A stretch of 64,000 bases of DNA from Octopus vulgaris (taxonomy: Eukaryota), in assembly GCA_951406725.2 (NCBI GenBank), contig OX597828.1, positions 39,680,001 to 39,744,000 of the forward strand, in the 5' to 3' direction. Below, piece after piece: positions 3,136 through 39,580 of this stretch. The position numbers and the translations under genes are program-made. The number at the start of each line of letters is the position of its first letter. Within the stretch, counting starts at the first letter, position 1. The notes under the pieces were generated by a model, which did not search any database, was not told where the DNA came from, and saw nothing but the letters and a program-made list of their open reading frames with translations.

Positions 3136-3301
3136 TAACAGTTTCGGAGCAGATGATGATACTGATGCAACATGTCCTAATTGCTATACTGCACCTTGTA
3201 CGGCAAACTGCTGCCCAGCAGAGTGTGCATATTGCTCTCGCAATAACCCGAGGTACAACTTTTGCAGAGATATAGCTTGCCTTGGTGCTAAATCTCATTA
3301 G
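3136..3301 (+). other. Candidate Cys-rich coding exon
   Basis: After acceptor ttccatctctatcag it reads NSFGADDDTDATCPNCYTAPCTANCCPAECAYCSRNNPRYNFCRDIACLGAKSH*. Possible internal donor AG|gtacaa at 3252/3253. Confidence 0.35.
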
Positions 3302-10378: not shown

Positions 10379-11219
10379 TGTATTAATACATACTTGCATG
10401 CATACATACAGACAGCCAGTTAGGCAGACAGACAGAGATTTGAGATAAATAGACAGACTGATAGCTTGACAGATAAAACTAGACAGAAAGATAGGTAAAT
10501 AGATGAATCTACCATATAAGTCCATACATAAGACAGGGTTTTCTTAAATCTAATAAAAAATAAACTGCCATGCATCTAATGTGACCATAGAGAAAACTGA
10601 TGAAAATCTCCTGGCAAGACAAGGTCCCAGAAGCAGAGGTCCTCCCTCAATCTGATCTGCAAAGTATTAACACACTGCTAAGGAGAACAAAAGTCAGATG
10701 AGCAGGCCATCTGTTGATAGAACTTTGTCAGACAGGGTACTCTTGTGCTTGCATTTCTCGGGTGTCAAGGTTAATCTCAAAGCTTTTCAGTGAGGCTTTG
10801 ACTGTATCCTTGAAGTGCTTTTTCCATCCACCGTATGTGCACTTAAACTAGTTCTCTGTAAAACAGTCTCTTGGGGAGCTGCATTTCAGACATTCAAACA
10901 AGGTGGCCTGCATATCTGACTTGTGTTCTCCTTAGCAGATCAGATTGAGGGAGGACCTCTGCTTCTGGGACCTTGTCTTGCCAGGAGATTTTCATCAGTT
11001 TTCTCTATGGTCACATTAGATGCATGGCAGTTTATTTTTATTAGATTTAAGAAAACCCTGTCTTATGTATGGACTTATATGGTAGATTCATCTATTTACC
11101 TATCTTTCTGTCTAGTTTTATCTGTCAAGCTATCAGCCTGTCTATTCATTTATCTCAAATCTCTGTCTGTCTGCCTAACTGGCTGTCTGTATGTATGCAT
11201 GCAAGTATGTATTAATGCA
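10379..11219. repeat. Long inverted repeat (~320-bp arms) enclosing an RTE 3' fragment
   Basis: 10379-10710 is the near-identical reverse complement of 10903-11219. The spacer on the minus strand reads LPKRLFYREL...KHFKDTVKASLKSF (RTE-like C-terminus). Confidence 0.9.
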
Positions 11220-16992: not shown

Positions 16993-17974
16993 CCACTGCT
17001 ACATAAAAAAGCAGCCAACACACTATGTACAGTGGTTGGCATTAGCAAAGGGCATCATGCCATAGAAACCAAGCCATATCAGACTGGAATCTAGTGCAGT
17101 TTTCATGCTTTCCAGCTCTGATCAAGCTGTCCAACCCATGACAGCATGGAAAATGGACATTAAATGATAATGATGATGATTGAATTCTTCCTTACTCCTC
17201 ATTTCTTGTGGTCACATTCATTAAACATGCCACACATACCATTCTTGACTGTCCCACTCACTGCTTAAGTATGGCTGTCCACTCACAATTGGCACTCATA
17301 CCTGTGCTTGGCGTTCTTTGACAGTCACCATATCTGTAGCAGTAATAGTAGTAATTGCAGCAGCAGCAGCAGTAGCAGCAGTAGTAGTAGCAGCAGCAGT
17401 GGCTGTTCTGGTGAAATCAAATGGGGCTGGTGTTGCTATTCGTAAACACATCAGCTCTAATTAAGTGCAGTTCGCCTGGGATGTCCTTTCCTAAGACAGG
17501 AAACTGTGATTGAAAGGAGATTTGGGTATTATTTCTAGCATGTCAACCAACCATTCAGCTGACTCACAAATGGTAGTATAGTGAAAATTCCGTTGTCCAA
17601 CATAATGTAATTTAGTTCTATTTTAATGAAGAGTGGTATGATGTAGAAGGATCTAATATGGTGTATTATTCCGTGGTAGAGGGGTTGAGTAACAAGACAC
17701 ATCATATTTTACCTTTTACTTCTTTCTGTCATTAGACTCTGGCCATGCTGGGGCACTGCTCTGAAAAAATTTTGTTGAATGAATTGACACGTGTACTTCT
17801 TTTTTTTTTAAAGTCTGGTACTTATTCTGCTGATCTCTTTAACTGAACTGCTAAGTTACTGGGACGTAAATACACCAACATTGGTTGTCAAGTGGTAGAC
17901 GGGGACAAATGCAAGTACGGAGGACACACACACACACTTACATACCTGTATGCATGTATGTAATGTATACATAG

Positions 17975-18350
17975 TGGAAGATCAATGGCTCTGGTTAGGG
18001 CAGCGGACTCATGGTCGTGGGATTATGTTTTCGATTCCCAGACCAGGCATTGTAAGTGTTTATTGAGCGGAAACACCTAAGGCTCCATAAGGCTCCAGCA
18101 GGGAGTGGTGGTGAACCCTACTGTACTCTTTCACCACAACTTTCTCTCACGCTTTCTTCCTGTTTCTGTTGTACCTGTATTTCAAAGGACCAGCCTTGGC
18201 ACACTCTGTGTCATGCTGAATCTCCCCGAGAACTACGTTAAGGGTGCAAGTGTCTGTGGAGTGCTCAGCCACTTGCACGTTAATTTCACGGGCAGGCTGT
18301 TCCGTTGATCAGATCAACTGGAACCCTCGTCATCATAACCGACGGAGTGC
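17975..18350 (+). mobile_element. tRNA-derived SINE family C
   Basis: Head ggttagggcagcggactc...ttcgattcccagacc; opposite-strand copy at 48045-48338. Confidence 0.7.
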
Positions 18351-18750
18351 TACGAATATATGTATATAAATGGCATGCTGCTGGTTGCAGTCTCAAGCAT
18401 TCCAGTTGATCTGATCAATAGAACAACCTGCTCATGAAACTAATATGCAAGTGGCTGAGTACTCCACTGACATACTTACCATTAACATTGTTCTTGGGGA
18501 GGTTCAGGACGACACAGAGTGTGACAAGGCTGGCTCCTTTGAATTACAGGTACAACTCATTTTTGACAGCTGAGTGGACTAGAGCAACATGAAGTGAAAT
18601 GTCTTGCTCAAGGTCACAGTCAGCCACTGGTTATCAAACTCATGATCTTATGGTCGTGAGCTGAAAGCCCTAACTACTCAGTCATGTGCCTTCACACTCA
18701 CACACACATACATACACACACACACACATGTCTGTGTGTTTCTGTGTGTG

Positions 18751-18784
<34 letters not shown>

Positions 18785-18788
<4 letters not shown>

Positions 18789-18932
18789 GCTTGCTTACCA
18801 ACCACATGGTTCCGGGTTCAGTCCCACTGCATGGCACCTTGGGCAAGTGTCTTCTACTATAGCCTCGGGCCGACCAAAGCCTTGCGAGTGGATTTGGTAG
18901 ACGGAAACTGAAAGAAGCCCGTCGTATATATT

Positions 18933-18979
<47 letters not shown>

Positions 18980-19178
18980 ATTTGTGTGTCTGTGTTTGTC
19001 CCCCCAACATCGCTTGACAACCGATGCTGGTGTGTTTACGTCCCCATAACTTAGCGGTTCAGCAAAAGAGACTGATAGAATAAGTACTAGGCTTACAAAG
19101 AATAAGTCCTGGGGTCGATTTGCTCGACTAAAGGCGGTACTCCAGCATGGCCACAGTCAAATGACTGAAACAAGTAAA

Positions 19179-19180
<2 letters not shown>
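18785..19180 (+). mobile_element. SINE family B, well-preserved copy
   Basis: Near-complete match to other family B copies; CpGs largely retained. Confidence 0.85.
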
Positions 19181-19226
<46 letters not shown>

Positions 19227-19268
19227 CAATAATAATTCTCTAAAAGAGATATAGACAGTAACTGCTCG

Positions 19269-19570
19269 ATAACATAAGGGACTAAAGCCATCTGAATATG
19301 GCTAGGGACAGGGCAGGGTGGTGGGGGTGTTACTGTTGCATTTAGCCCCAGGCGAACATCGACGTCACCAGAAAGGCCCGACACCGTCACGGTGTCCTTA
19401 ACCTGCAAAGGGAGGTGGAATTACCTCCCTTTGCAGGTTAAGGACACCGTGACGGTGTCGGGCCTTTCTGGTGACGTCGATGTTCGCCTGGGGCTAAATG
19501 CAACAGTAACACCCCCACCACCCTGCCCTGTCCCTAGCCATATTCAGATGGCTTTAGTCCCTTATGTTAT
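19269..19570. repeat. Perfect 148-bp-arm palindrome with 6-nt loop
   Basis: 19269-19416 is the reverse complement of 19423-19570; spacer ggaatt. Confidence 0.95.
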
Positions 19571-20247
19571 ATATATATATATATGCATATATTCATATTT
19601 TATGGAGCAGTATACCATTAGTTATGGTTAGTATGTTACTAATAGTTTTGCACTGACTACTGTGTTCAGCAATATTCATAACTCTTCAGATATTCCGGTT
19701 GGAAGTGCATAGTCCCTGTTGTACCTGGGTAGCTTGATGTTGGTAAAAAGAACTGGAATGAAATAAAAAAAAATTGTAGCATTTTCTGAGAGAGAAAGAA
19801 GAGTTGCCTCCCTTGGATCAATGTCAACCTCTGCTAAAGAATGCCAGCTGTGTTTGAACACGTCCGTTTTCGGTTCTGAAAATGTTGCCATTCATGAGAA
19901 CAGTATCCAAATATTTTACATTTTGATTCCAGGAAAGATTCTGGATTGTGTGAGATTTTTTAAAACGATTCTTTTCATCATCTACTTCCATTCACGTATG
20001 GTCCATGCCATTCCAGCATTGCTTCCACTTTATACAGCATTGCTTCCACTTTGAATTATCAGATACAGCTGGTTAACATTGTAACATTGTGCTTCTCTTG
20101 AATTCTAAAAGAGGAGCCGTGATTATTTACTCTGACTTTACAGAGGCCATCTGTTACTCCGACATATTTCTCTGTGTGTGTTCCCATTATTGGGAGAAAT
20201 CATCTTCGCTCTGTAGATCATAACCTCTGTTTTGTATTGATTTTTCA

Positions 20248-20309
<62 letters not shown>

Positions 20310-20454
20310 TGAAATTATTGTATACAGTGCTCAGGTGCACCACAACTTGTCAAAAGTGCATATAAAGCATGTGCATTGGAAGCACTCCGTCGGTCACGAC
20401 GATGAGGGTTCCGGTTGATCCGAATCAACGGCGCAGCCTACTCGTGAAATTATC

Positions 20455-20785
20455 TGCTTAAGAACCTCACCAATGGAGAGGTTCTTAAGCAGATAAGGCC
20501 GAGAATGTCGCTAGAAGCTAGGATCACCAAGCATAGATTGGCATATTTCGGTCATATTATGCGGAGGGAATCCCCGGAGAAGGACATCATGCTCGGAATG
20601 GCCAGTGGCAAGAGAGGAAGAGGTCGACCAAGAACCCGCTGGCTTGATACCATCAGGAGTGATACTGGAATGGACATGGCCATTCTGAAGGAAGCGGCCC
20701 AGGATAGAACTGACTGGAGGACACTGATCCAACGAGTGACTGAGAGTCGATTCCAACTAAGCGGATAGAGAGAGAGAGAGAGAGT
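20455..20785 (+). mobile_element. RTE-clade LINE 3' end
   Basis: ORF RLAYFGHIMRR...GKRGRGRPRTRWLD...AAQDRTDWR followed by a (GA)n tail. Confidence 0.85.
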
Positions 20786-20907
20786 AATACGAATGCCGAA
20801 AGGTTAAAATAAATTGATGCTTGCAGTTATTATGTTGCATCTTGTTTCTGTAATTTAAATTTTGGTTTTATCTAATTTCAGGTTATAGGAGATAGAATAT
20901 TTCCAAC

Positions 20908-21005
20908 ATGACCCTTGGTATTGTAGCTGCACTGACAGCTGCCAGCACAATTGCAGTAATTAACTTCATCTTTGTCATTGCTATTATTGTTTGGAGATGT
21001 AAACG
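20908..21005 (+). CDS. Single-pass membrane protein, first intact coding exon (TM helix)
   Basis: Acceptor atttcag ends at 20881; ATG at 20908; MTLGIVAALTAASTIAVINFIFVIAIIVWRCKR; donor CG|gtaaat, phase 2. Confidence 0.75.
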
Positions 21006-21017
21006 GTAAATATAATT

Positions 21018-21325
21018 TACTAGCAGTATCGCCCGGCGTTGCTCAGGTTTGTAAGGGAAATAACTATATAAGCATTTTTAGAGAGTTACTTCCCTTATAT
21101 AAACCGAGCAAAAAATGCATTAAAAAAACCAAAAAATTATGGTAAATTTTTTTCAAATTGTAGACTCATTGTAGATGCACGCTAATACCCAGAAGGGCTC
21201 GATATGAATCACGACTATAAGATACCCGCTTTTGGTTAAACTGCACCGCAAAATGTGGGAGTAGTTAGGAATCTAAATCGGAGGAGACAGACTCTCACAC
21301 AACTTCAGTTTTATATATAAAGATA
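21018..21325 (+). mobile_element. Non-autonomous Helentron/HINE-like element
   Basis: 5' actagcagtatcgcccggcgttgctc, 3' acaacttcagttttatatataaagat. Related 5' ends at ~42260 and 53029; related 3' ends at ~40880 and ~54630. Confidence 0.5.
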
Positions 21326-21794
21326 TCCCTTTGTCACTGTGCCAACTAGACTATCAGATGTGGTTATACACCGCTAGTCACCATGCACTTTCTCGCATTA
21401 TTATAGCTTTCTAATGATGTCACTCTGTGGCCAACATTCTCTCTGAAAGGAAGGTCAGTACATCTCAGGGTCACCTGTTTACAGCTTACGGGACTGGAGC
21501 TATGTGAAATGAAATGTTTGGCTTAAGAACACAATGCACTACATGTCTGAGAATTGAAACCATGATCTTGTGGTTGTGAATGCAACACCCTAGCCACTTA
21601 GCCACATGCTTTCACATAATTTGTATAATTAATTAAATTCTCTTATTGAAACATAGGTAAAATATTCAGTCATAATATTTTAAATTTTAGCACAAAGCTG
21701 CCATGGTGACATTTGTTCACAACTTTCATGCGATGTCAAGACAAAATGGTACAAACACAAACAGATGGCTTTAGTCCCATATTCTTTTTTTTTC

Positions 21795-22165
21795 CTTTTA
21801 TTCTTTTACTTGTTTCAGTCATTTGACTGTGGCCATACTGGAGCACTGCCTTTAGTCGAACTAATCGACCTCAAGATTTATTCCTTGTAAGCCTGGTACT
21901 TATTCTGTCGGTATCTTTTGCCAAATTGCTAAGTTACGGGTTGTCAAGTAATGAAGGGGGGAGAAACACAGACACACACACAGACACAGACACACACACA
22001 ATATGACAGGCTTCTTTCAGTTTCCATCTACCAAATCTAATCACAAGGCTTTGGTCAGCCCGTGGCTATAGCAGAAGACACTTGCCCAAGGTGCCATGCA
22101 GTGGGACTGAACCCGAAAACATGTGGTTGGGAAGTAAGCTTCTTACCATACAGCCACTCCTGTGC
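21795..22165 (-). mobile_element. SINE family B copy
   Basis: Reverse-complement match to 18785-19180. Confidence 0.85.
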
Positions 22166-22171
22166 CCATAC

Positions 22172-22733
22172 CTCTCTACATCTCTGTACATATGATAAGC
22201 TTCTTTCAGGTTCCATCAACCAGATCCACCTACAAAGCTTTGGTCAGCCTGGAGTTAAGGTCCAAGATGCCATGCAGTGGAACTAAACCTAAAACCACAT
22301 AGTTGGAAAGTGAACTTCATAAGCACACAGGTATGCCTGTGTCTATCTAAAAATAACCAAGGACCTTAGTAAAATAACTAACTTTATAGATTATAGGACT
22401 TTCAACTCTTTAGCATTTAAACCAACTAAATATGGCCAAAATATTCTATCTCTGGCCATATTTAGTTGGTTTAAATGCTAAAGAGTTGAAAGTCCTATAA
22501 TCTATAAAGTTTGTTATTTTACTAAGGTCCTTGGTTATTTTTAGATAGTCACAGGCAAAGCTGTGTGCTTATGAAGTTAACTTTCCAACCATGTGATTCT
22601 GAGTTAAGTTCTGCTGCAAGGTATCTTGGACAAGTATCTTCTACTATAACTCCAGGCTGACCAAAGCCTTGTTGGTGGATTTGCTTGGTGGAACCTGAAA
22701 GAAACCCATCATAAGTACAGAGATGTATAGATG
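22172..22733. repeat. Inverted repeat (~270-bp arms, 13-nt loop)
   Basis: 22172-22438 pairs with 22452-22733; inner ~115 bp nearly perfect, outer part diverged SINE B heads. Confidence 0.9.
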
Positions 22734-23560
22734 TGTGTGTGTGTGTCTGCGTTTGCACCACTTTCTCTTGACATCATACAAGCAGTGTCATTCATTTCCA
22801 GTCTTCTACAAAAACATGTTTGGTTGCAGGAAGATGTTGCCTTGCTTAGAAACAAGTGAGAGCTAGTGACAGGAAAGGCACCCAGCTGTAGTAAATTTGC
22901 CTCAACGAATTCTGTCTAACCCATGCAAGTAAGGAAAAGTGAATATTAGAACAGTGATGATGATAATGAAGATGATGATGATGGTGGTGGTGGTGGTGGC
23001 GGCGGCGACGACGACGACGATAGGCTGTATATTTTGCTGGAAGTATAATCATGAAAAGATTAAAGTTTCAACTTTATATGAATCTGTATGGAATGACAAC
23101 AATCCCAATTGTAGTTAAGGCGGCAGCGTAACATTATGTTCAATGCATTAATACTTTAGCCTACCCAACCACTATATTAATGATGATAATGATATTGGTG
23201 GTGCTGATGGAATTCTTTTTTTTAACCTTTTAAGTGTGGTTACTCCAGTATCTCACAAAAAAGAAAAATATAGAGAATTGGTATTTTCTGCAAGTCACAT
23301 TGACTTAATAAACTTGACATATCTAAACAGAGAATAATTTCAAACATGAGATTCCTCAACAAAAGAGAGACTGGTATATAAAATTGCTTTCTGTAGTTAA
23401 GGGTTATCAAATTCTGAGTGGATATATCTGATTTGTGCAGCAAAAGGGTTAATTTTTAGCCTAATCTTTTCTGGATTGTCACACATTTAATTTCAAGCTG
23501 GTTTTTTTTTACCTTCATCAATTTATTCTTATATTTATTTTTTCCTTTCATCAACAACAG

Positions 23561-23856
23561 ATGGAAAAAATCAAAGCCTGTTCCAGTAACATCACTGTCA
23601 TCCCAACCAACCATTCTCAAAAGGAAACCTATAAATATCAGCCGATTGGATCTGAATCCGCAAAACTTAGCTGGGCAGCAAAATCCTGTCTATACAGTGC
23701 CAACTGTAATACAAGCAGTTCCGAACAGAAATCCAATTTCATATGAGAGGCAATCAAGCAGGTCCCCTAACAGTGTTTGGCCACCTCCTGGTCAGTTTTT
23801 AACGATGAATGATTCAGTTATGTGGCGTCCAATTGAGAATGATACTGTTGTCCCTG
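23561..23856 (+). CDS. Membrane protein exon 2 (cytoplasmic tail)
   Basis: Long pyrimidine tract ending caacag; phase 2 in, phase 1 out (G|gtaagt); open frame WKKSKP...QNPVYTVP...WPPP...NDTVVP. Confidence 0.75.
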
Positions 23857-24302
23857 GTAAGTAAGATAATGTAATTTTGATTGATTGATTCAATCGTATT
23901 TCCTGTGACTAATCAGTCATCACATAGTTGAGCTAAAATAGTTTCTTTGGTTCCTTAGTTTGGTTTAACCATTATAACTAAAGCTGAACATTACCTTCAT
24001 CTGAAATGTTGATGGAGAGGAGAATATTTAGGGTGTATTTTTGTTGTGTGTAAGCTAGTTAGAAGGGGAGGGAGCAGGCAGTACTCATGGCCGTTGCAGG
24101 ACTTCCCGGCCTGATGAGATTGATGCATTTGATGTTTTACATCAGCATTTTGTAGGTCGATGTTTGCAAGAAGGGCATGTTTGATGAAGGAATTCTAAGT
24201 GATTGCCATCCTGGGGAAGGAAGTGAGAATTTGGCAAAGTGTTTGGTGAGGCATCTTAAAAGTTAGACACAATGATCGAAGGAGGATCATAAATAGTTGA
24301 GT

Positions 24303-25105
24303 TGGGTGAGTTTGCATGGCAAGGGTGTGTATATGGTAAGGGTGAGCTTGCATGGCAAGGGTGTGTGTGTGGTAAGGGTGAGCTTGCATGGCAAGGGTGT
24401 GTGTGTGGTAAGGGTGAGCTTGTGTGGCAAGGGTGTGTGTGTGGTAAGGGTGAGCTTGCATGGCAAGGGTGTGTGTGTGGTAAGGGTGAGCTTGTGTGGC
24501 AAGGGTGTGTGTGTGGTAAGGGTGAGCTTGTGTGGCAAGGGTGTGTGTGTGGTAAGGGTGAGCTTGTGTGGCAAGGGTGTGTGTGTGGTAAGGGTGAGCT
24601 TGCATGGCAAGGGTGTGTGTGTGGTAAGGGTGAGCTTGTGTGGCAAGGGTGTGTGTGTGGTAAGGGTGAGCTTGTGTGGCAAGGGTGTGTGTGTGGTAAG
24701 GGTGAGCTTGCATGGCAAGGGTGTGTGTGTGGTAAGGGTGAGCTTGCATGGCAAGGGTGTGTGTGTGGTAAGGGTGAGCTTGTGTGGCAAGGCTGTGTGT
24801 GTGGTAAGGGTGAGCTTGCATGGCAAGGGTGTGTGTGTGGTAAGGGTGAGCTTGCATGGCAAGGGTGTGTGTGTGGTAAGGGTGAGCTTGTGTGGCAAGG
24901 GTGTGTGTGTGGTAAGGGTGAGCTTGCATGGCAAGGGTGTGTGTGTGGTAAGGGTGAGCTTGTGTGGCAAAGGGTGAGCTTGCATGGCAAGGGTGTGTGT
25001 GTGGTAAGGGTGAGCTTGTGTGGCAAGGGTGTGTGTGTGGTAAGGGTGAGCTTGTGTGGCAAGGGTGTGTGTGTGGTAAGGGTGAGCTTGCATGGCAAGG
25101 GTGAG
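24303..25105. repeat. 36-bp minisatellite, ~23 units
   Basis: Unit gggtgtgtgtgtggtaagggtgagcttg(ca/tg)tggcaa; one truncated unit near 24970. Confidence 0.95.
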
Positions 25106-26005
25106 ATTGTGTGGCAATGGTATGCAGTTACCTAGTTTACAAGTGTGGTGGTGGGACCACAATTGCCACATGTGTGAAGCAGATTGCAGTATACAGTAAT
25201 ATAGACAGTCTCCATTGGTCAAAAGCTAATCTTGTATCTGGACATGTATACCCAAGTCTGGCAAGATTTTTTGGCAAAAACTTGTCAGTTGCCTTTGCAG
25301 GCCTTTCCTTTCCATGACATCAATGTTTATCCAAGGAAAAGGTTGCCGAAATAATGCATTCCTAACTGATGAACTTGAAATAAGTTGAGAAAGCTATGAA
25401 TAATAGCATGGACATTTTCTATACAAAATTCGTTTTGAATAAAATGGGTGGCCTCTAACTTTTCCTAACCAAAATTGTTTTTAACTAATTTTTTTACCTT
25501 TATATGCTTTGAGTTCTACAATTTTGAATTAATATATACATGTGTGTGTGTGGGGTGTATGTATGTACATACGCATGTGTGTATGTATGTGTGTGTGTGT
25601 GTATATATATATATAACTTATAAACAAGGGCAAAAGAAAAAAAATTTCTCATGCCAAATATGCTGAAAACAGACACATCGTCAATAACCATATATTTCAT
25701 CACTATAAGCACGTGTTTCGAAGAAAGCTGACAGAAATTACTAAAAAATTCCGTTATTATCATATCGGACCCGATTTCAGAGTTAATTCATAAGAACCTT
25801 CTCTTCGTCAGTGATAAATGCGGCAAAGGAATAAATGAAATGCTTACTTATACCCATGGAAGAAGCAAACACTAAGTCATGAGCAGACCTAAGTACCCCA
25901 AATATATCCAAAATAGAAATTCTCCAGCACACCTCGAGACACGTGCGATCAGACTGAAAACTCTCATAGAGTGAGAGAGTCCAAAAGTGAACACTATTAA
26001 ATTTA

Positions 26006-26175
26006 CATCTGATATAGGATAAAATTTTCAAAAAAAAATTCTATCAATGGCCAGCATATTAAAAAATATCTTTAACGGTTAAATTTATAAACAACAATTT
26101 AACCTTTAAAGGTATTTTTTAATATGCTGGCCATTGATAGAATATTTTTCAAAAAATTTTATCCTATATTAGATA
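26006..26175. repeat. ~80-bp-arm inverted repeat
   Basis: ttctatcaatggccagcatattaaaaaata...ggttaaatt pairs with aatttaacc...tattttttaatatgctggccattgatagaa. Confidence 0.85.
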
Positions 26176-26292
26176 CACACACACACACACACACACACAT
26201 ACACACATTCTAAAAGTGAGGTTAACAACCTGGATAATTATAATTTGCTGTTTCTTTGTATTATGTTTATTTTTTATTTTTTTATTTTCCAG

Positions 26293-26308
26293 CCAGACAA
26301 CAAATTCA
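26293..26308 (+). CDS. Membrane protein 16-nt microexon
   Basis: Long T tract + ttccag|CCAGACAACAAATTCA|gtaagt. Confidence 0.6.
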
Positions 26309-26574
26309 GTAAGTAATATCTTATATATTTGTTTGTCATTTATTCTATAGCTTTTTTTGTATTTCCTTTTTTGTCTGCAACTGTTGTTAGAAGGTGTGTA
26401 GTGTGTGGTGGAATTTATTATCTAATTTTTTTTTTTTCATTTTTGTTAATAAATTAGACAATGGAGTACAACTGTGTATTGATGGCCTTTACTGTTCCTT
26501 ACAGACTAGATGGATATGGCCTGGGCACCTGCGGATAAATGTTTGCAGGATAGATGCAAGTAAAGAGGGATCTA

Positions 26575-27345
26575 CTACTACTAATAATAATAATGAAATT
26601 ATTGTATACAGTGCTCAGGTACACTACAACTTGTCAATAGTGCCTGTGAAGCGTATGCAGTAATGTACAAATGTCTGGAAAGTGAACAGTATATGAGTTA
26701 GATACATGCTTGCGTGTGTATGGAGGGAAGAAAATCAGGTGTAGTGTTGGTGATTCTCAGGAAGCATGGAAGTTTTGAAGGATGCAGTGCTCCAACAACT
26801 AACAACCGATGCTAGCAGTTTATTCCATACTTCAGCAACTCTTAGCATGAAAAAATGTTTCTGAAAGTCATGGGAGCTGTGCTGTTTTCTGACTTTGTAA
26901 ATATGTCCACGGGTGTTAGATGGGTGGAGTTTGAAAAGGTGCTCAGAGTTATTGTTAGTAAGATGGTTAATAATTTTATGGGTGTCTGCCAAGTCAGTTG
27001 TCAGATGCTGGAGTTTCAATGTATCCATGCTCAAGGACATAAGGCGTTCAGAATATGGCAAATGCCTGGAGGTTATTCTCTTGGTTGCACATCGCTGAAT
27101 GGTTTCCAGATGATTAATATCCCGGGCAAAATAGGGGTTCCAGACCGGTGATGCAAATTCCAGGTGAGGCTGCATATAGCTATATAAAGCCTCAGATAGA
27201 TAGCCGGAGAGCGGCTCGCAAAGGACTTGGTGAGTGATGCCAAGACACCCTCAGCCTTCTTGGCATTTTTAGCAATGTGTTTTGTCCAACGCAAATCACT
27301 GTTGACAATAATGACCAGGTCATGTTCACAAGAAGTCCTTTTGAG
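26575..27345 (-). mobile_element. CR1/L2-clade LINE 3' fragment
   Basis: PHLEFASPVWNPY...LPYSERL...NTRGH...KHFF.LRV...WNKL with an (ATT)n tail. The same 3' end recurs at ~20250-20375. Confidence 0.8.
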
Positions 27346-27435
27346 ATTAGTCAGGTTTTACTCACACAGTGTCAACATGAAGACATGTTGCAACACTCAC
27401 ATACACATACACACTCAGGTCTCTATGTGAGTGTG

Positions 27436-27466
<31 letters not shown>

Positions 27467-27987
27467 CTCATAATCATCATAATTTAACTTCCGTTGTCCA
27501 TGCTTGCATGGGTTGGATGGTTTAACTGGGCTGGCATGCTGGAAGGCTGCACCAGACTCCAGTCTGATCTGGCGGTGTTTCTACAGCTGGATGCCCTTCC
27601 TAATGCCAACCACTCTGAGAGTGTAATGGGTGCTTTTACATGCCACCAGCACAGATGCCAATTTGCGTGACACTATTGCCAAAATTTGAAATCAATATTA
27701 TACATCTTGAAAGTGTGGAGCTGGCAAAATTGCTAGTGTGTTGGGTAAGTGGTTTTTGTCCAACTTTATGTTCTGAGTTCATATTCTGCCAAAGTCAACT
27801 TTGCCTTTCATCCTTTTCAGGATCAATAAATAAGTACCAGCTGAGTACTGGGGTTGATGTGATTGACTTATCCCCTCCTTTGGCGTTGCTGGCCTTGTGC
27901 CAAAATTTGAAATTAATGTTACATATCTTGACTTTCATTAAAATAATTACTAAACAGTTTTTTCTTTTTTCTTTTTAATTCTTTCAG

Positions 27988-27994
27988 CAATTCG
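27988..27994 (+). CDS. Membrane protein 7-nt microexon
   Basis: Long T tract + ctttcag|CAATTCG|gtgagt; restores frame together with the 16-nt exon. Confidence 0.6.
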
Positions 27995-29630
27995 GTGAGT
28001 ACAATTTTATATTTTTCTCAAAATTCATAACTTTAAAAAATATGTTACTATATATAAATAGATTAAAAAAAAAACAAAAAAAAAACATTGAATAATTCTT
28101 GATTGGAGATAGCACTTGCTATCTCCAACAAGGCAGCCTCTACTTGAGTGCTTGCATGCTAGAAATAGCAGCTACATTTCCCCCAAACCACTTTCTATGA
28201 TTCTAATATAGGAAAGGACGCATTTAATAATGCAGTAATTTTGATATAGTTCTAAAAAGATGAGGTGGTCACTGATGGAATGTCTTTTATTGTAAATCTA
28301 TTTCATCAAGTTTAATATAGGGCTGAACAAAAACAACAAAAAGAGCAACAGTGACTAAACACTAAAAAGTGAGCCAATGAAGATGTTTCTTTACAATTGC
28401 TCAACTTGCTAGAAATAGCAGCCATATCGTCATAGAGTCTTATCTTAGTATCTTAGTAACTCGTGATTATTATACATAAATGAGTCACAGCTATTTGGTC
28501 AACAGACAAAAATAACAATGATGTACAAATAATACATGATGTTTATCACGGACATGTTAGTTCTACCTCAAAACCCAGTCTTTCTACAACAAACAATGAA
28601 AGAGAACAAAAGAGAGTTCGCTACACATCACAACAGATTATGTATAGACCACATTTGTGAACAACTTACACAATGGGAGCAGGAGTGGCTGTGTGGTGAA
28701 ATGTCTCCTTCCAAAACACATGGTTCCAGATTCAGCATTATGTGACACCTTGGGCAAGTGTCTTCTTGTATAGCTTTGGGCTGACCAAAGCCTTGTGAGT
28801 AGATTTGGCTGATGGAAACTGAAAGAAGCCCATCATATATGTATATATATATATATATATATATAGGGAGAATTCAGAAAAAAAAACAAAAGACGAAGAC
28901 AAGTGGTGTAGACAACAAACAGATGTATCAGTATAACGCTCAGGAAGTGAGAAAGTTTTTAATGTTTTGAGCCTACGCTCTTCTACAGGAAGAAACAAGG
29001 AGAGAAAATAAAGAAAGTGTGATGTCTAGCGATCTATCATGGTGATGTGTGTGTATGAGTGTGTGTGTGTGTGTGTGTGTGTGTATCTTTTTGTTTGTGT
29101 TTGTCCTCCACCACAGCTTAACAACCGGTGTTGGTGTGTTTATGTCCCTGTAATTTAGTGGTTCAGCAAAGGACCAATTGAATAAGTACCAAGCTGAGTA
29201 AAATATAAGTAGTGGGATCAATTCATTTGATTAAAATACTTTAAGGTAGTGTCCCAACATGGCCACAGTCTAATTACTGAATTGATTAAAAACAAAAATA
29301 CTGCAATTGAAAGTCACCTGGATATGAAAGAAGTACAGTTTGTTATTGAGCAAACTTCAACTCCCAAAGTCCACCTCCAAACAAAAGAAACATTTACAAA
29401 ACCCCAGAGAGCTGCTACAACAGTGTTAGGGACAAAATTCGTTTACAGGAGTCCCAACTTTGCAGATAGAATCATGGGAGGTTTTTTGAGACATTCTTTT
29501 GGAAAATAAAAAATGCATATTATCTGATTTTTAAGTGACTAAATTATTTGTATGACTTTCTTATTTAATTTTGTTTACTCAGATTGTTGATTTTAACATA
29601 ATTTATTTCATGTCTTTTTTATTTTTTCAG

Positions 29631-29723
29631 AATGAGAGACCTGAATACTTGAAGAGACAGAGAGATCCAGGCTTTGGATCAGTAGAAATCTTACCTGATT
29701 ATGATAATGATGTATGTTATTGA
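29631..29723 (+). CDS. Membrane protein last identified exon
   Basis: After ttttttcag only phase 0 stays open: NERPEYLKRQRDPGFGSVEILPDYDNDVCY*. Possible donor GAT|gtatgt at 29711/29712. Confidence 0.65.
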   Translation, partial: NERPEYLKRQRDPGFGSVEILPDYDNDVCY

Positions 29724-29830
29724 TATATGAATTGGTGTTAGATTTTAAGGAATAGCAGAGAGGAACAAGATGGGGTGGAGTGGAGAGAAAGAAATGTTTA
29801 AGGAGTTCACATGAATAATGTGAGAAAAAG

Positions 29831-29886
<56 letters not shown>

Positions 29887-38100: not shown

Positions 38101-38809
38101 TTGTATGGCTACAATACTTAGGCATAACTACAGTTTAGTTTCCTCATAAATTTCTGAAAAGAGCATGTTTTTAAATAAAATTTTGCAGAGGTATATTTTC
38201 AAAGGTGTAAATAAGAATTGCAGCATGGAAGGTGTTTATAAGCCATTTAAGAAACACACAAAAACCATTAGATTCACTTCAACATATAAATTTAATTTGT
38301 CAAAATATTTTCGTCTCTTTGAGACCGCGACCTGTTCACTGACAAAATTCCATGCTGCATCTTCCACACTGCAATTGTTTTCGTTCTAGCAAATGATCTC
38401 AAATCAGGTCACTTGCTATGCAAGTGCATCTCCATAACAAATAAGAATTATTCTGCTAAAATGTTTGAGGAAAAGCATTTTTTACAACTGAACTACAGAA
38501 CTAGTTGCTCTCTATATTTCTGCTCCATTTTCCCTATAAATGCTATGGTGTTTTCTCAAAATATCACTTGTTCCACCATGATTGTTGATGAATTAGTCAC
38601 TTCTACTTCTGCTTTACCTGCTTGTATGTCTAAAATTTACCTGAAGATGGTAGTATTTTGCCATGATGCAATCTAAGAATGCACCAATAAAATATTGGCA
38701 AAACGGTTGTTATATACTATGGGAGAATAAATTGCCCCTCAAACACTGGCAGGAAAATGCATCAATGGCACATCATTCTTGAAGCAGCTGTAAAGGTCTA
38801 ACTGTACAT

Positions 38810-39580
38810 CTTTCTTCATACCAAGCTTTGGAAAATGGGTGCCTCATGAATTGTCTAAAAGCAACTGCAAATCCCGAGTTGATATCTGCTCTTCTCTCCA
38901 TTCTCGTGAACTCCTTTCACCCTTTTTGGATAGACTTGTGACGAAAAATGGATCTTCTATCGAAATGTTAAACGTCATAAACAGTGGCTTGGTAAAAGGG
39001 AAAAAGCTCAACCACAACTGAGAAGGGAACTTCATGGAAAAAAGGTTCTCTCAATCTGGTGGAATTGCAAAGGAGTAATTCACTTTGATTGTTACCACCT
39101 AATGCAACAATCAATGCTCAAGTCAGCAATTAGAGTGTTTGAACCAAGCTTTGAAGAAAAAAAAAGAACCGCTTTAGTGAATCGAAAAGGAGTGATGTTT
39201 CATTAGGGCAATGTGCGACTCCATACTGCAAAGATCACATCACAAAAGATTGAAGAGCTTGGTTGGGAAAAAATTCCTCATCCACCTTATTCTCCCGACT
39301 TTGCTCCTTCAAACTACCATTTGTTTCGTAGTTTACAGAATCATTTGGGGGACATAACTTTTGCAAGCCAGGAGGAGGTTGAAACTGGCATTTCAGAGTT
39401 CTTTGCTTTGAAACCAAAAGAGTTTTACATTGATGGGATTAAAAAACTTGTAAATAGATGGAAGCAAGTCATAGATAATCAGGGAAAGTAAATTGATGAT
39501 TAGATTTCAATTAAATATAACATTTGATCATTTGTTTTCTTTATTCGAAATTCGGACAGAACTTATGGGACAACCTGATA
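38810..39580 (+). mobile_element. Degraded mariner transposase, 3' two-thirds
   Basis: WVPHELS, HPPYSPDFAPSNYHLFRSLQNHL, GIKKLVNRWKQVIDNQG; frameshifts; terminal cagaacttatgggacaacctgata. Confidence 0.85.

Follow-up and report, generated by a model that had tools for sequence, protein, structure and literature searches.

Transmembrane adaptor proteins (TRAPs), among them LAT, NTAL/LAT2, PAG, LIME, SCIMP, LAX and GAPT, have few extracellular residues, one helix, a juxtamembrane cysteine and a non-enzymatic tail with several tyrosines. LAT, NTAL and PAG carry a juxtamembrane CXXC (PMC3342071), and LAT2, LAX and GAPT have four or five YxN motifs. Commissureless (Comm), the PRRG proteins and Rcr1 are short single-pass proteins with an LPxY motif followed by acidic and hydrophobic residues, extra non-canonical xPxY motifs and several tail lysines; PRRG proteins have a luminal Gla domain, and Comm is a Nedd4 substrate adaptor that acts on Robo1 (PMC12101832). 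In poxvirus A36 (PF05950), likewise a small membrane protein, Nck and Grb2 are bound by an unstructured tail that carries tyrosines. Here we compare with these systems a gene for a 169-residue protein of Octopus vulgaris, found in a 64,000-nt stretch of contig OX597828.1 (assembly GCA_951406725.2, positions 39,680,001 to 39,744,000; hereafter the window, whose numbering is used below). The gene is real and expressed and its five-exon model is exactly right. The reading that we favour, at a probability of about 0.4, is that its product is a sorting adaptor whose conserved Pro-x-Tyr motifs would dock WW-domain (Nedd4-family) and PTB-domain partners.

A preliminary description of the locus had proposed five phase-consistent exons encoding 169 residues with a series of named tail motifs. 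All of these are present on the + strand, where the joined coding exons (Table 1) give 510 nt, or 169 codons and a stop, across four introns that are all GT..CAG; the structure is seen in spliced contigs, and the same protein is annotated in O. sinensis and O. bimaculoides. A strict scan of the whole window for short exons with strong splice sites returned six candidates on the + strand, both microexons among them, and none on the - strand. None of the 24 runs found in the run search is recorded as RNA (the label being "RNA, a guess"); for those compared here, intron-exact joins show that they are spliced RNA. The exon 1-exon 2 region was compared in runs X1, X5, X9 and X10 over 17000-24300. 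The join lies at the predicted sites in X5 (922-nt contig) and X9 (833-nt contig), two of the four runs among the pieces listed; the 621-nt X1 contig spans exon 2, has a variant at 20957 and is consistent with the same join, its exon-1 piece not being among those listed, and X10, with no contig over 23588-24300 (most of exon 2), is excluded as evidence. Exon 5 was compared over 29480-29832 in X1, X5, X9 and X15, which come from four studies with three organism labels. In all four the end of exon 2 and both microexons stand immediately before exon 5, with letters that match the model and an exon 2-exon 5 spacing of 23 letters in the three contigs compared over both regions. There is one contig per run over exon 5, and contigs drop rare variants, so skipping forms could escape. 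All four contigs run on past 29712, where GTATGT could serve as a donor, and include the TGA; a continuation from that donor into a kinase or phosphatase domain is thereby ruled out, and the gene has no extension into a catalytic domain.

The gene is already annotated, as LOC115220624 (XP_029646630.1) in O. sinensis and LOC106870792 (A0A0L8HHQ4) in O. bimaculoides, each time only as uncharacterised, and is undescribed in the papers searched. The O. sinensis protein is identical at 168 of 169 residues, the sole difference, V17A, being a polymorphism also present in X1 and X9; that of O. bimaculoides, equal in length and start, is identical at 153 of 169 (91%, 16 sites differing). No paper names the five gene identifiers in a full-text search, which leaves supplements beyond the readable ones as places where they may occur; for tissue or cell type, they are absent from the readable supplements of PMC9712504, PMC13230822 and PMC9815951. 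Literature searches on invertebrate transmembrane adaptors listed nothing relevant. With exon 2 as query, 1.84 billion representatives yielded a single protein and so did the 90% collection, and the full 169-residue query returned the same single protein among 19 candidates; its cluster has four members, all from Octopus, all uncharacterised and all starting at the same Met. Protein searches gave no relatives beyond Octopus, in collections whose cephalopod coverage is uncertain, and the genome (2.8 Gb) holds no paralogue at E<=1 among 16 candidates, making the gene single-copy and, as far as searched, Octopus-restricted, in keeping with the lineage-specific protein first proposed. Pfam gave only sub-threshold matches to the helix and no described TRAP family at E<=10, so the earlier caution that the likeness is one of architecture and not of homology holds.

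The layout itself was read correctly from the start. Hydropathy has a single peak (maximum 2.45), and AlphaFold, weak here because it had a two-sequence alignment, gives one confident helix at residues 3-37 and a predicted local distance difference test (pLDDT) score below 50 for 117 residues. The helix thus begins at residue 3 and leaves an extracellular part of few residues, as in the TRAPs, and the tail appears disordered and non-enzymatic, with no Pfam family above cut-off. Foldseek with this low-confidence model gave 0 matches at E<=0.001, a result that is not meaningful given the model quality. There are no basic side chains before the helix and six Arg/Lys in residues 30-38, from which the established positive-inside rule predicts an N-out/C-in, type III topology. 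Cysteines occur at 31 and 168 only. The juxtamembrane Cys31, kept in O. bimaculoides, may be palmitoylated by established rules, and stands alone where LAT, NTAL and PAG have CXXC.

An in-frame TAG lies 15 nt before the ATG inside the same spliced exon, which starts at 20882, and a large ectodomain is therefore excluded in the observed isoform. The TAG could be avoided only through an acceptor at 20896, unused in the observed contigs. It is very improbable that we are seeing a receptor stub, with a second isoform that would use this acceptor, bypass the TAG and gain an ectodomain from upstream exons. The phase-0 AG at 20894-20895 does leave the frame open up to the Met, with an N-x-S sequon in it, and the EGFR tail appears to have a similar basic flank and a similar succession of QNPVY, PEYL and PDY. 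The 5' exons are also unmapped: none of the 24 listed candidates ending in AG for exons of the 5' untranslated region (UTR) is assignable, and the X5 contig has 249 further, unmapped letters upstream of the exon at 20882. Against such a receptor, the 20882 acceptor is the one used in each of the two listed contigs that span exon 1, the four database proteins share their start, no longer homologue was found among 26 candidates of a weak search, no PDB sequence matches at E<=10, and the genome has no second locus at E<=1. What is shown is a single-pass protein that is expressed and constrained and that lacks both an ectodomain and a folded domain; from this we infer a membrane-tethered adaptor.

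Constraint is unevenly spread along this protein. The O. sinensis and O. bimaculoides proteins differ at 15 sites, 10 of them in residues 99-142 (clustering p 0.014), none in the 47 sites of residues 22-68 and one in the 27 of residues 143-169. Among the coding variants displayed in contigs, four of five are synonymous (p 0.044, given that 33% of transitions would be synonymous; some variants are not displayed). The longest invariant stretch, residues 22-68, holds no tyrosine, and the helix has small residues at 4, 8, 12 and 16 plus Asn19 (window 20908-20994), a possible helix-packing face. Both features would suit a small accessory membrane subunit or a membrane-cytoskeleton tether, whose function would reside in the helix together with the basic, invariant segment next to the membrane, the tail motifs being largely incidental; several of the nearest feature neighbours are small type III proteins that are not known as tyrosine scaffolds. 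This alternative is rather unlikely, as the last 27 residues with their three tyrosines are also nearly invariant (26/27) and P-x-Y is enriched in the tail.

At 91% identity the conservation of a motif has little weight, and the losses are the informative part. Cys31, NPVY77, YTVP, YERQ, RPEY145, LPDY163 and the terminal VCY are kept in O. bimaculoides, whereas YxN is lost (N165D, giving YDD) and so is WPPP (P109L, giving WPPL). The expected conservation of the cysteine and of all five tyrosines therefore stands, while the proposed Grb2 site, a motif present in 37% of shuffled tails, and the WPPP motif do not survive; the Crk/Nck-type YxxP is kept as YTVP and is at chance level, arising in 51% of shuffles. 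YxxQ arises in 32% of shuffles and NPxY in 6%; Yxx-hydrophobic is found at none of the five tyrosines, though 74% of shuffles have one.

These counts bear directly on the preliminary proposal of a LAT/NTAL/PAG-like scaffold, which stands in its layout of no ectodomain, one helix and a Cys and fails in its YxN, its WPPP and its single Cys. A convergent scaffold of this type would be palmitoylated at Cys31; once a receptor was activated, Src/Syk-type kinases would phosphorylate it, and it would recruit SH2 and PTB partners, Crk/Nck at YTVP, STAT at YERQ and Shc at NPVY. The architectural definition of the TRAPs fits (PMC3342071 and PMC4861716), the five tyrosines equal in number the five motifs given for LIME, and three of them lie in an acidic context. 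The nearest language-model cluster is A36 (0.92), followed by SCIMP (0.88) and LIME1 (0.87). However, the sole YxN is absent from O. bimaculoides, in contrast to the four or five of LAT2, LAX and GAPT, YxxP and YxxQ are at chance level, Yxx-hydrophobic is missing, and there is no CXXC. The Atlas neighbours also include the non-adaptors Opalin, Stannin, FAM163 and C1orf185, the top match shares 163 features (guide 170) with 3/10 matches sharing its family, and a query of only the tail returns nothing usable, so the likeness comes from the membrane layout. A36 itself shows no alignment-level similarity, and PF05950 has no match at E<=10. A scaffold of the LAT type is thus doubtful, with about the same standing as the accessory subunit.

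The preliminary description had passed over two things: the conserved PDY belongs to an LPxY, a Nedd4-family WW ligand, and three of the five tail tyrosines are P-x-Y. Pro at -2 in three of five has a shuffle p of 0.019 (post hoc), and all three are kept in O. bimaculoides; N165D, which removes YxN, spares the proline-tyrosine (PY) motif. The extended motif (LPxY, acidic, hydrophobic at Y+4) at LPDY 160-163 has a shuffle p of 0.003 in both species, the pattern being post hoc, and NPxY together with LPxY a p of 0.005, with patterns picked after the sequence was seen. PMC5578492 describes this extended motif for Comm and PRRG4 and reports a non-canonical VPEY, similar to the octopus RPEY, that binds Rsp5. 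The short single-pass layout, the acidic and hydrophobic residues after LPxY, the extra xPxY motifs and the several tail lysines are all shared with Comm, PRRG and Rcr1. The P-x-Y pattern and the LPxY thus favour a sorting adaptor no less than a LAT/NTAL/PAG-like scaffold. WW matches in the genome number 22, including clusters of three (C2) and four (C6), which by their pattern look like putative Nedd4-family ligases.

In a sorting adaptor of this kind the helix, with its small residues and Asn19, and the invariant residues 22-68 would engage a partner membrane protein, while LPDY would bring in a ligase of the Nedd4 type and NPVY would bring in a PTB adaptor for clathrin or recycling. The partner would then be ubiquitinated and sent on to endosomes, in the way that Commissureless handles Robo; if the three C-terminal tyrosines, which are acid-flanked, became phosphorylated, docking might be switched off or over to SH2 partners, and microexon skipping would remove the C-terminal docking module. 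Several points weigh against the sorting adaptor. There is one canonical LPxY and no PPxY, NPVY and RPEY being non-canonical, versus two or more PY motifs in Comm and PRRG, and 12% of shuffles contain a bare [LP]PxY. That five tyrosines and Cys31 are untouched has a chance p of 0.57 (two species at 91% identity, hence little power), and the sparing of tyrosine flanks is not significant (p 0.20). The language-model neighbours shown for the whole protein include the phosphotyrosine adaptors A36, SCIMP and LIME1 and no PY adaptor. At least two acidic residues precede three tyrosines (shuffle p 0.002, post hoc, in a shuffle that ignores the acidic C-terminal bias), which suits kinase substrates equally. 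Protein and Pfam searches gave no homology to any PY adaptor, and the octopus protein, unlike PRRG, has neither ectodomain nor Gla Pfam match. At best guess the protein resembles a known adaptor class, and membership in the TRAP or Comm/PRRG families is not supported by homology.

The microexons may add a layer of control. For O. bimaculoides there are newer models, 143 and 135 residues long, that agree with loss of the 7-nt exon or of both microexons; they may represent true isoforms, or the aligner may have missed the microexons. These RefSeq-predicted forms would delete the last three tyrosines. A comparison by hand of the two annotated frames over the opening 21 nt of the last exon implied three base changes, two of them synonymous in the 169-residue frame (one in the Tyr145 codon) and none in the other, so that the long frame looks selected. 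The microexon acceptor tracts have no UGC by eye, and no claim of a neuronal eMIC programme (PMC8797185) is therefore made. It is a speculation, and an unlikely one, that Octopus independently evolved a Commissureless/LAT-like adaptor whose three-tyrosine docking module is on only with both microexons, each combination setting a different last-exon frame.

Table 1. Parts of the 169-codon gene in window coordinates
Feature	Position	Strand	Evidence
5' untranslated part of first coding exon, with in-frame TAG at 20893-20895	20882..20907	+	X5 contig 20880-21004, 0 other letters; frame check
Coding exon 1: Met, hydrophobic helix (~aa 3-29), Cys31, start of basic cluster	20908..21005	+	Contigs; N-terminus shared by 4/4 database proteins
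Coding exon 2: basic cluster, invariant aa 22-68, NPVY77/YTVP, YERQ94, variable linker	23561..23856	+	Contigs X1, X5, X9
16-nt microexon	26293..26308	+	Loose-end letters of contigs in 4/4 runs, match to model
7-nt microexon, synonymous T>C at 27991 in 3/4 runs	27988..27994	+	Contigs
Last coding exon: RPEY145, LPDY163, C-terminal VCY169, TGA	29631..29723	+	Covered in 4/4 runs
Start of 3' UTR, mapped to 29832 only	29724..29832	+	X1 and X5 contigs throughout; X15 to 29755; X9 departs at 29727

Beyond the stop codon, the X9 contig (organism B) leaves the window sequence at 29727, 4 nt past the stop, and resumes identical to it from 30892 onward; this 1.16-kb difference in the 3' UTR has no GT donor and is probably genomic. 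Intron 2 contains a 36-bp minisatellite of ~22 copies (24304-25121). The gene lies between two - strand neighbours. Upstream and divergent are exons of Integrator subunit 14 (INTS14; contig ~39655700-39666700), a synteny anchor, assigned from IntS14 beta-barrel and VWA matches on two exons that fall below the Pfam cut-off; downstream and convergent is a multi-exon cytochrome P450 gene (41600-64000), whose exon at 43510-43671 matches PF00067 at E 5e-14 and is CYP3-like by eye. On the + strand at 3137-3298 a 54-codon open frame with nine cysteines has a good acceptor (3136) and a donor (3253), with no Pfam match and one weak second genomic match containing a stop; it might encode part of a small Cys-rich peptide, belong to the 5' UTR of the 169-residue gene as an exon, or be due to chance. 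Elsewhere there are a long near-perfect palindrome by eye (~19290-19550), inverted and direct duplications near 10400-11200 and 11560/13420, and, at 1-840 and just upstream, a broken pol remnant like that of a long terminal repeat retrotransposon, seen by eye from sequence and frames. A translated piece at ~38700-39500 is presumably a mariner-like transposase remnant.

Short membrane adaptors of the LAT or Commissureless type change quickly in evolution, which makes homology searches for them difficult, and Comm homologues are reported as not found outside insects (PMC5578492). At present the octopus gene is an annotated orphan of common architecture, with a function proposed from short motifs in two close species. 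If verified, it would be a constrained, Octopus-restricted candidate for cephalopod receptor sorting or tyrosine signalling built from new parts, with its frame-shifting microexon pair as a testable switch.

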